Shown one piece after another: positions 30,001 to 33,000 of a DNA stretch of 64,000 nucleotides; position 1 is the first letter of the stretch, and each line of letters begins with the position of its first letter. The position numbers are program-made. This DNA is from Vulcanimicrobiota bacterium. Lineage in GTDB: Bacteria; Vulcanimicrobiota; Vulcanimicrobiia; Vulcanimicrobiales; Vulcanimicrobiaceae. The stretch lies in contig CAWCIZ010000001.1 in NCBI GenBank assembly GCA_963795855.1, positions 160,001-224,000 of the forward strand, read 5' to 3'.

Positions 30001-33000
30001 CCGGCACACGATCCAATGATGGATTACGTCATCGACGGCGCTCAGCGCGGCAAACTCGTGCTCGGCGTATGCAACGGCGCGCAAATTCTTTTGGAAGCAG
30101 GCCTCGTGCCGGGCACCGGCGCTGTTCGCAAACCGACGGCGGCGTTCACGCGAAACGGGCCCGTGCCGCACTTCGTCTGCAAACACGTGCACATCAAACT
30201 CGCGGTTTCGCCGAAACGCTGCGCGATCACCGCCGCACTCTCGCCGGACGCGCTCATTCCGGCGTGGGCGGCTCACGGTGAGGGGCGCTTAGCGGCAACG
30301 CCGGAACACTTGCGCGAAATCGTCGACGGCGGCCATATGGCGTTCGTGTACGCGCATGCGGACGGATCGGTAGACGCCGGCGCAGTGCCGAACGATTCCG
30401 CGCTCGGCTGCGCGGGGCTTACGAACCGCGAAGGCAACGTGCTCGCCATCATGCCGCATCCCGAGCGCGACGCATGGAATTACAATCATCCGGACGACGT
30501 GCGGAAGGGCGACGTTCTCTCACCCTCCGGCGGAGCGGTGCTCTTTCAAGCGCTTGCGGACGCAGTCAGACGCGCATGACGCTTCGCACGATCGCGATCA
30601 AGCTCAAAATTCCCGACAACGAGGCCTATACGGCGCTGACGGCTTTGCGGCGTCTGGGCGTCGATGCCGCGCGGCTCGAGCGGGCGGAGATCTGGCAACT
30701 CGAAGACGGCGGCAGCCCCGGGGATTTCCCCGAACGCGTCGAGCGCAACGAAACGTTGTTCAATCAAAACAAACACGAACTCGAACTGTTGGAGAACCAA
30801 ACGCCTCGCCCCGGTGAGGTGTGGGTCGAGCAGCTCGACGCGAAAGACGTTCAGCCGCGCATCGCCGGGGTGACGCGGGCTCGGCGCTACGTCGGGTGGA
30901 GGTTATTCGCGCAAAGTCACACGCCGGCAGACAAAGAGACCGTGCTCGCTGCGGTAGACCTTTTATTGTGTAATCCCGCGATCGAGAAAGCAATCACCGC
31001 ATGAACCGACCCTACACCATCGCGACGCTCGGATCGCACTCCGCGCTGCAGATCCTCAAGGGCGCGCACGATGAGGGTTTCCGAACCCTTGCCATCGCCA
31101 ATCGCGACACGGAGCGCTTGTACCGGTCGTTCAAGTTCGTCGATGAAGTCATCGGCATCGAACGCTATCAGGATTTCTGGCAACTCGTTCCCGAACTCGA
31201 AAAGCGCAAACTCATCGTGGTACCGCACGGATCGTTCGTCGCGTACCTATCGCTCGACGAGCACAAGCGCATGACGGTCCCGTATTTTGGGAACAAAGCG
31301 GTGCTCGACTGGGAGGCGAGCCGCGAAATGCAGCGGGAGTGGCTTTCTCGTGCGAATCTCAAACTGCCGCGCCAGTTCAGGAACCCCAGCGAAATCGACC
31401 GCCCGGTCATCGTGAAACTCTACGGCGCCGCCGGCGGCAAAGGGTACATGTTCATCCAAGACGCTGCGGATTTCGAGCACCGCGCCGCTCACTTGAAAGA
31501 AGCGCACATCATTCAGGAATATATCGTCGGCGTGCCGCTGTACATTCATTACTTCTATTCGCCGCTGGAAGACAAACTCGAAATCATGAGCATGGACCGG
31601 CGCTACGAAACGAACGTCGACTCGCTCGGACGCATACCGGCCGCCGCGCAGGAAGGCATGGACGTCAGCCCATCCTATGTGGTGGTCGGGAATTCGCCCG
31701 TTTCGCTGCGCGAGTCGATGCTCGCCGAGGCGTACCGCATGGGCGAGGACGTCGTGCGGGTGAGCAAGGAGATCTGCGGACCGAAGGGCCTCTTCGGCGC
31801 GTTCTGCATCGAAACGATCATCACGCCGGATATGCAGTTCTACATCATGGAGATCTCCGCCCGGATCGTCGCGGGCACCAATCTGTTCATCGACGGATCC
31901 GCATATTCGTACCTGAATTACTCCGAGCCGATGTCGACCGGCAGGCGGATCGCGCGGGAAATCAAAAACGCACTTTTGACCAACAATCTGCGTTTCGTAT
32001 TAGATGACACGAGCGTTCTGTAAACTCGCGGCCGTGCTGCTGGGCGCGGCGATCTCTCTAGCGCCGCTCGCTTCGCGTGCGGCCTTCATGGCCGATCCGG
32101 TAAAGCTCTACAATGAGATGATGGCGGCCTACACTCGGGGCAACCAGCAAGGCTGGACGTTTTACAACCAAGAATACTACCTCTCGACGATCTTCAATGC
32201 GGGCCGCGCCTATTCACTGCAGCGCTCCTCGGACCCGCAATACGCGAAAATCGAGCAGATGACCGTCGACATCGCATCCTCGCTTCATTACGATCCGCTG
32301 ATCAATCACGAGGCGGTTCCGTGGTACGTGCGGGAAGCGGCGGTGTACGTGCAGCGCAACAATCCGGATCCGGCGGAAGTCGACAAAGCGAAAGCCCTTC
32401 TGGCGCGCGTCGATGCGCTCGAGGATCCCGCCGCCATGGCGGAATTCGCGGACTCCGATGCAGCAGCTGTTTTGGAGCAGTACCCGCACGACACGAACGC
32501 GCAGCTCCTGCGCGTGGAGGCGAATTGGCGCGGCTGGGTGCTCACGCAGGATCCGTCGTGGCGAAGTCTCGCGCTCGCCCGCGCGAACGATAAGGATTTT
32601 CCGCTCGCAGATCTGCCCGCGACATGGGGCCCGGAATTCCTGAACGCCATCCACAATGCGGCCGCGGGCGCGGAGGGGTACACGGAAGGCGATCAGACGA
32701 ATGCGAAGGCGCTGGAAGCGCGCATCGCACAACTGCCGCAGTTGAAGACGATCGCGAGCATCAACGCGGAAACGCACGCTCGAATCATGTCGACGCTGGC
32801 GCCCGCGGACGAGTATTTCGGTCCGATGGGGATGTCGATTCTGGGCATACGGAACGAACTGAACCGCGTGAATTATCTCATCGGCTACGGCTACGCCCGC
32901 CAGGAGAGCCCGATGGCCGTTCAGGTCGCCGTCGCGATCGACGACCTGCACAAAGTATATCCGCGCGATCGCGATTTGCCGCAGTTGCTGTTCGACGTCT

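Follow-up and report, generated by a model that had tools for sequence, protein, structure and literature searches.

What two genes of the PurP family are doing in the purine cluster of a bacterium, and how they came to be there, is the question raised by this locus. The stretch of DNA analysed as a whole, here called the window, comprises 64,000 nucleotides from a genome of the Vulcanimicrobiaceae. The purP gene is stated to be restricted to archaea in two surveys, the first of them covering 1,266 bacterial genomes (PMC6486802; PMC4177761). No published report of purP in bacteria was found in the literature searched, the scope of which excluded subscription papers and bioRxiv supplements. The names 'Eremiobacter', 'Peregrinibacter' and 'Microgenomates' are absent from the supplement of PMC6486802, and purine, formate and folate are not mentioned in the main text of PMC9758169. 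The bacterial presence is on record though not discussed, since database records already name these proteins as the ligase. The genes described here form a pair of group II and group III members, of a kind known from archaea, and their family occurs in every sampled genome of a bacterial class.

The first gene (31001..32023, forward strand) is an intact open reading frame encoding an ATP-grasp protein of 340 aa, in which DUF1246 (E 5e-41) and DUF1297 (E 1e-66) both score far over the Pfam cut-offs. Its closest solved relatives are Pyrococcus furiosus PF1517 (E 2.5e-98), Methanocaldococcus jannaschii PurP (E 9e-88) and the T. kodakarensis structure 2pbz. The second gene (54142..55265, forward strand) runs from a GTG at 54142 to a TAA at 55265, corresponds to a product of about 375 aa in relatives and also carries both Pfam domains over cut-off, with its N-terminal portion in another frame of this assembly. 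The N-terminal 93 or so codons are out of frame by one extra base near 54420, which is absent in the alignments of 10 of the 11 relatives, the eleventh not spanning the site, and a second frame slip lies near 55230. The missing N-terminus that the survey had suspected to be an indel error is thus explained as such, its shorter reading frame starting inside the full gene. Since purD (four frame pieces), purE (three), guaA and an aminotransferase gene (both split) are broken in the same way, assembly error is the likely cause of these slips, and the apparent shortness of the gene most likely reflects an error-rich assembly. The full-length frame is intact in 10/11 relatives' loci examined, while one (L121) seems shortened at its start. 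Exactly two DUF1297 matches occur in the genome (86% complete), both inside the window, confirming the survey's count of two PurP-family genes; they are of different type, and the window cannot be described as holding a single purP.

The PurP family has been split by residue 258 and a loop, with Asn and GG(K/R)G in clusters Ia and Ib, and His and a loop two residues longer in cluster II (PMC3261824). [quoted passage not shown] By these features the first gene of the window belongs to group II (Brown cluster Ib; PF1517-like) and the second to group III (Brown cluster II). With residues numbered after M. jannaschii PurP through an alignment, H13, S78, N231, R237, S239 and R288 of the first protein correspond to H27, S94, N258, R264, S266 and R314, and its loop reads GAAGGKG; the second protein has His at 258 and the loop KAPHAKVSFERAFF.

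The residues were compared across loci L002-L139, giving 108 distinct Asn-type and 70 His-type rows. Similarity and gene order decided which rows were taken as class-type; a few records named Verrucomicrobiia, Acidiferrales or 'bacterium' are among them, and some genomes may enter twice; loci of the unpublished genomes G178 and G276 are included. Group II rows keep S94, N258, R264, S266, E297, E310 and R314 in 108/108, and H27 (one gap) and the GG(K/R)G loop in 107/108 each, the first loop position being Ala, Gln or His rather than Lys or Arg. In group III, H27, H258, S266, Q297, D310 and R314 are invariant (70/70) and S94 is kept in 69/70. None of these 70 rows has the GG(K/R)G loop, the group III loop being two residues longer than that of group II, basic and glycine-poor. 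The formyl contacts H27 and R314 are thereby common to both groups, apart from the gap among the 108 group II rows at H27. Position 264, where R264 is the residue that we take to bind the AICAR 5'-phosphate, is never basic in class group III, with T, L, I or V in all 70 rows; Leu at this position also occurs in Microgenomatia-type group III rows. Group III possesses invariant basic residues of its own, and the residue equal to M. jannaschii R51 is invariant there (69/69 rows) and not conserved in group II. The archaeal proteins with which class group III proteins group carry H258 and come from Micrarchaeota, ANME and Bathyarchaeota bins.

The survey had treated both genes as paralogs of an AICAR formylase. 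Neither window protein passes any NCBIfam PurP cut-off; against NF009780, the model fitting the M. jannaschii type, they score 361 and 245 bits with the cut-off at 556. They are instead members of groups II and III, for which the reported assays, of P. furiosus PF1517 (group II) and PF0421 (group III), were each negative (PMC6486802 and PMC3261824, citing another paper). Predicted models of both proteins are confident (pLDDT 90 and 94), and their top Foldseek matches are the PurP crystal structures of PF1517 (TM 0.90) and M. jannaschii PurP (TM 0.87). A group-I-like protein that passes NF009780, P0126, is placed elsewhere in the tree than the window proteins; it has in common with the pair 23 positions conserved in group II and 14 conserved in group III, among the latter the equivalent of M. 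jannaschii R51, and differs from both groups at 21 other positions. Sequence change is faster in group III, whose mean identity is 68% against 79% in group II. Median dN/dS is 0.04 for group II and 0.06 for group III (21 pairs each), indicating purifying selection, and GC and GC3 of the genes resemble those of their neighbours.

The pair stands among genes of purine synthesis, and each single gene given here with its coordinates lies on the forward strand. The order begins with purB (24872..26299; TIGR00928 over cut-off), the adenylosuccinate lyase that makes AICAR, followed by purC with a C-terminal PurE-like tail (26302..27501, start inferred; strong SAICAR_synt match, AIRC weak with E 5.6e-5 and under cut-off), purL (27494..29812; TIGR01736 over cut-off) and purQ (29809..30579; TIGR01737 over cut-off). 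The next gene (30576..31004) encodes a 142-aa protein with no Pfam or NCBIfam match, which is probably PurS-like, judging from its position, the same in relatives, and from a C-terminal motif. It overlaps the group II gene by four bases. The survey was right in placing that gene in a purine operon, and its order needs correction, with the purS-like gene between purQ and purP rather than between purC and purL. Downstream lies a gene for a 371-aa protein of no known family (32004..33119), which most Vulcanimicrobiaceae loci have inserted between purP II and purP III. Then comes a segment of about 21 kb (33126..54078) with largely nucleobase uptake and catabolism genes, which splits the pair and is represented by 1-4.5 kb or nothing in relatives. 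Beyond the group III gene are guaA (55763..57314) and purD (57316..58557), both broken by frame slips, and purF (61647..63008); some 5 kb past the window end come purM and a PurN-like gene. The second gene does lie between urate genes and guaA, as the survey described; this placement is an accident of the 22-kb insertion, and in relatives the pair is found in one purine cluster. Because 22 kb of mostly catabolic genes splits the pair here, the neighbouring urate genes are uninformative on function.

Across the class to which the genome belongs, the cluster reads purB, purC (with PurE-like tail), purL, purQ, purS-like, purP II, purP III, guaA, purD, purF. The two purP genes are adjacent in 8/8 fetched genomes of the two other families of the class, with gaps of about -4 to 25 bases, several of them 4-base overlaps. 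All 61 class-type loci holding both genes have II followed by III on a single strand within 5 kb, a count that omits loci whose partner gene lay beyond the fetched flank; the gap is 150 bases or less in only 10 of these 61. In Vulcanimicrobiaceae the genes are often 1-4.5 kb apart, and about 22 kb apart in the window genome. Among 81 loci outside the class that contain both genes, the order is II-III in 45 and III-II in 36, and in 63 the two are no more than 150 bases apart; in Microgenomatia-type loci the pair is embedded among purA, purB, purE, purC and guaA. Groups II and III travel together across domains, in bacterial and archaeal loci alike.

The survey had presented the family as a signature of the phylum. 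DUF1297 is found in 233/301 phylum genomes, and these fall into 232/232 genomes of the window's class (207/207, 3/3 and 22/22 in its three families) vs 1/69 in the other classes. The single outside protein is 96% identical to a Methanothrix protein and most likely represents contamination of the bin from a Methanothrix source. Two or more matches were obtained in 228/232 class genomes, which are kin rather than independent samples. Ten unpublished genomes (G178, G276, G248, G264, G213, G238, G231, G128, G246 and G233) enter the DUF1297 and PurH tallies; without them the DUF1297 figure is 222/222. The PurP family therefore marks the class, not the phylum, and the survey's claim of fixation in a large bacterial group stands at that rank. 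Elsewhere the family is patchy: it occurs in 22/81 genomes in the class of a Peribacteria genome, 9/81 in the class of a Curtissbacteria genome and 7/101 in the phylum of an Anaerolineae genome. The positive centre genome is part of each of these counts, and many of the genomes are incomplete bins. The purP genes had no match in plasmid or phage collections.

The origin of the pair was examined with unrooted trees of group II (68 and 41 rows), group III (67 and 56 rows) and a concatenation of both (29 loci). The rows are a subsample chosen either by identity or by hand; the smaller trees and the AU tests omit long unnamed rows, and none of the trees contains named Thermococci or Sulfolobales. 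The trees of II and III match each other. The class forms one clade (100/100) within a 12-row clade (100/98) that also holds Curtissbacteria, Daviesbacteria, other genomes of that class, Anaerolineae and one Micrarchaeia bin; the next branches outside are Peribacteria, a Saccharibacteria bin and two Methanosarcinales bins. Across a 100/100 split from the class side lie 11 archaeal rows, while three archaeal genome bins fall within the mostly bacterial clade. In AU tests, run under a simple model on groups named after the trees were seen, joining the class with ANME-type, core Micrarchaeota or Methanosarcinales/Thermoplasmata rows was rejected for II (p < 1e-5), and joining it with ANME-type or core Micrarchaeota rows was rejected for III (p 0.013 and 0.001), whereas joining it with Microgenomatia-type plus Anaerolineae rows was not rejected for III (p 0.089). 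The nearest relatives of the class pair are thus mostly bacterial, from Patescibacteria and Chloroflexota, and the acquisition from Archaea proposed by the survey is not supported as a direct one; in a well-supported phylogenetic reading the pair was probably gained once, in the ancestor of the class, from a pool common to these two phyla. Further back, an archaeal origin is likely because of the range of the family.

As the survey noted, a complete PurH with both domains is present in the genome, and PurH matches were obtained in 227/232 class genomes. The motifs GRVK, ID.GG, AAKN, RYG.NP, KH, KSN, GQ..R, FFPF.D and the final R..H, whose roles we assume from work on ATIC, are kept in 27/27 loci, two positions that are usually conserved being altered throughout the class, and the transformylase domain is no less conserved than the cyclohydrolase domain (66% vs 59%, 15 loci). 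Retention of PurH as a cyclohydrolase only was accordingly ruled out, the transformylase domain being the more conserved of the two. Folate auxotrophy as the reason for the pair was also ruled out by the presence of FolP in 61/61 class genomes checked and of FolD and Fmt in the genome itself. A divergent PurN-like protein was found in 31/31 class genomes with the genome's own PurN as query, its N-x-H-P and Asp being kept in 12/12 loci examined and TIGR00639 over cut-off in only 1/31 under a strict E limit; replacement of a missing PurN by one purP paralog was thereby excluded. PurT was found in 0/51 class genomes and PurU in 6/51, the FolP, PurU, PurT and PurN counts including G128, G233 and G305. 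Neither Fhs nor PurO was found in the genome, and no ZMP riboswitch in the window or the genome, which is 86% complete. Since PurT was found in none of the 51 genomes and the PurN-like protein in all 31, step 3 of purine synthesis still needs folate. The folate-independent bypass of the survey, likened to PurT beside PurN, can therefore apply to step 9 at most, within a pathway that remains folate-dependent. With PurH, PurN-like and FolP all kept, the pair is an addition and not a replacement. Outside the class, PurH coexists with the pair in 3/5 other bacterial genomes checked and lies close to it in Peribacteria loci, while two incomplete Chloroflexota genomes gave no PurH match. Why an entire class should retain the pair alongside a sound PurH is the chief difficulty.

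The pair very probably has a role at AICAR/FAICAR, and it is rather likely that both proteins act as a joint complex. The reading preferred here, that groups II and III form a mixed oligomer working as an ATP- and formate-dependent AICAR formylase beside PurH, is tentative, its chance being nearly even. ATP would activate free formate on this oligomer, and the AICAR amino group would take the formyl unit to give FAICAR (purine step 9), by analogy with group I PurP, whose reaction passes through a formyl-phosphate intermediate; the N-terminal domain of PurH would then close the ring to IMP. Group II would supply an intact ATP loop and the AICAR-carboxamide residue, and group III, which keeps the formyl contacts and lacks GG(K/R)G and N258, would supply residues lost from group II. 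At step 9 alone, the pair may give the class an additional route that does without folate, by which AICAR released by PurB and by histidine synthesis could be cleared during a shortage of 10-formyl-THF. We infer the complex, the reaction, formate as donor and this physiological role from the retained diagnostic residues (108 II and 70 III rows), the predicted PurP fold, linkage, matching trees and low dN/dS, together with the two or more matches in 228/232 genomes and the adjacency of II and III inside and outside the class. The mosaic of P0126 would be expected if a self-sufficient enzyme holds the features that the pair divides. In archaea, every genome with group II also had group III, and a heterohexamer was speculated upon (PMC6486802), and S. 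solfataricus extracts incorporate formate into IMP (PMC3261824). Nevertheless, FAICAR synthetase activity has been reported only for group I and for no group II or III protein (PMC6486802; PMC3261824). Because PurH is kept with its motifs and a conserved transformylase domain, the pair has no missing reaction to cover. In addition, no dedicated formate source tracks the pair, as seen from PurU and Fhs, no ZMP riboswitch was found in the genome, the basic residue at 264 is lost from class group III, and the genes are within 150 bases in few class-type loci. The mosaic rests on one group-I-like protein and fits simple ancestral retention equally. A stronger form of the mixed-oligomer reading is possible but should be held with slightly more reserve: II and III would be subunits of an obligate heteromeric formate-dependent FAICAR synthetase, each inactive alone for that reason, a free-living, folate-making class with the synthetase fixed beside PurH would run step 9 by two chemistries, and the module would circulate among Patescibacteria and Chloroflexota.

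It is possible, though unlikely, that the substrate of the pair is AICAR, FAICAR or a similar nucleotide but its reaction is unlike that of PurH, with another formyl donor, in the reverse formate-releasing direction, or in salvage of ring-opened purines. Such a difference would explain its fixation beside a sound PurH, and it accords with the stable coexistence of both in the class, the other bacterial genomes and the Peribacteria loci, with PurH beside the pair in 10 archaea (PMC6486802, table 1), with the negative assays of PF1517 and PF0421, and with K. cryptofilum, which has the pair without the de novo pathway (PMC3261824). Against it stand the invariant formyl contacts of both groups, the 37 archaeal genomes for which no gene other than II/III is listed at the final two steps (PMC6486802, table 1), the formate incorporated by Sulfolobus extracts (PMC3261824) and the two Chloroflexota genomes, albeit incomplete, with no PurH match.

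Slightly more doubtful is a division of labour in which II alone is the formate-dependent AICAR formylase, with III either acting as an enzyme in its own right or binding loosely as a regulator; for group III, IMP cyclohydrolase has been suggested as a speculation (PMC3261824). Group II does keep every active-site residue named in that paper, and the different loop, H258, D310, own basic residues and faster evolution of group III, as well as the distances of 1-4.5 kb in Vulcanimicrobiaceae and 22 kb here, would suit separate functions. Against this, PF1517 was inactive alone, PurH already provides IMP cyclohydrolase while III is kept, and the two groups travel together across domains.

It is improbable that the two genes encode ordinary PurP enzymes obtained straight from Archaea, that they mark a whole phylum and that they make purine synthesis folate-independent. 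Family membership and fold, the description of the family as archaea-only (PMC6486802; PMC4177761) and the three archaeal bins inside the mostly bacterial clade are in its favour, but the family is found once among 69 genomes outside the class, in a probable contaminant, PurT was not found in 51 class genomes, placement of the class with the archaeal sets sampled fails the AU tests, and the group I model scores stay under cut-off; as regards distribution and step 3, this version is mostly disproved. A contaminant or a relic in decay, which the frameshifted group III gene of this assembly might suggest, is scarcely credible given full-length genes in 10/11 relatives' loci, neighbour-like GC and GC3, dN/dS below 0.07 and presence in 232/232 genomes.

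These results bear on PurP beyond this locus. Where the family was viewed as archaea-only, all sampled genomes of a bacterial class common in soil carry it, and it is patchy in Patescibacteria and Chloroflexota; the two purP genes provide a clean class marker. The function of II and III has been open since the P. furiosus proteins assayed negative, though step 9 depends on no other known gene in many archaea. This old question becomes testable with the bacterial copies, which are often translationally coupled and occur in a lineage with a cultured member (PMC9758169). If the heteromeric reading is true, PurP would be no archaeal signature, and bacterial proteins could serve to settle step 9 in Thermococci and Thermoproteota.

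Several known systems resemble the pair in part. In step 3 of Escherichia coli, PurT, an ATP-grasp enzyme using formate, is kept alongside the folate-dependent PurN for the same step. By analogy the pair may likewise be a formate-using ATP-grasp enzyme beside a folate-dependent one; PurT, however, belongs to another step and family, is one gene with proven activity and was not found in the 51 class genomes. PurP I of M. jannaschii (MJ0136, PDB 2r7k) has in common with the window proteins the ATP-grasp fold, H27, S94, S266, R314 and the same Pfam pair, but works as a single gene product with shown activity, whereas the window proteins score under the NF009780 cut-off. Methanosarcinales with purP II, purP III and purH also hold the pair alongside full PurH and folate (PMC3261824; PMC6486802); they are archaeal, and labelling there favoured the PurH route (PMC3261824). 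The closest counterpart is the archaeal PurP II/III pair (Zhang groups II and III; PF1517/PF0421), with one gene of each type per genome, purine context, adjacency, N258 and a glycine-rich loop in one protein vs H258 and a loop two residues longer in the other, and the PF1517 fold. The pair described here differs from it in the T, L, I or V at 264 of class group III and in its bacterial host, which belongs to a class that synthesises folate, retains both PurH and a PurN-like protein and has the pair fixed throughout.

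Between the two purP genes of the window, the group II gene (31001-32023) is followed by a gene for a protein of 371 aa with a signal-peptide-like start (32004-33119). Its nearest atlas clusters are unnamed and come mostly from this phylum, and the leads towards TPR-like proteins are weak. Then come genes for a nucleobase permease, an amidohydrolase, dihydropyrimidine-dehydrogenase-like and xanthine-dehydrogenase-like proteins, an M20 peptidase and urate oxidation (33797-54078), a cluster that sits within the purine synthesis cluster. At the other end, ribBA, ribH and an mtnA-like gene (18595-21990) lie immediately upstream of holA-purB. 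Formate is released by riboflavin synthesis and by methionine salvage, and this placement is perhaps a coincidence.

The purC gene (26302-27501) carries a C-terminal tail, PurE-like by a weak AIRC match, which is a feature of the class, and a separate purE-purK pair is present on another contig of the genome (C5:19807-21320). A divergent PurN-like protein is encoded at C1:228148-229929 (L325), and its N-x-H-P motif is followed by an insertion. In this genome, a domain that by eye resembles an acetyltransferase lies in frame ahead of the PurN-like part.

Outside the phylum, an intact group II gene occurs together with a degenerate group II copy in four Chloroflexota genomes (L336-L339). The degenerate copy has Asn in place of H27 and has lost R314 (M. 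jannaschii numbering), and three of these four genomes additionally carry a group III gene at another place. The purP pairs of some archaeal bins (L239, L246, L297 and L299) fall within the mostly bacterial clade and are arranged in the gene order II-III, and these bins are possible donors or recipients of the pair. Within the phylum, PurH had no match in 47 of the 69 genomes outside the class (families f5, f6, f10, f12, f13 and others), and neither did PurP in those 47, except for a probable contaminant, L140 (G082:C110), a contig within a bacterial bin that resembles Methanothrix DNA.

In many Peribacteria/Gracilibacteria loci (L222-L258), a full purH is found 2-5 kb from the purP pair. In all 27 loci of the class (L353-L378 and L382), PurH has lost HQ of RYGENPHQ, and its KHx is followed by V, I or L, whereas PurH of the other bacteria examined keeps HQ and has N or S at the latter position.
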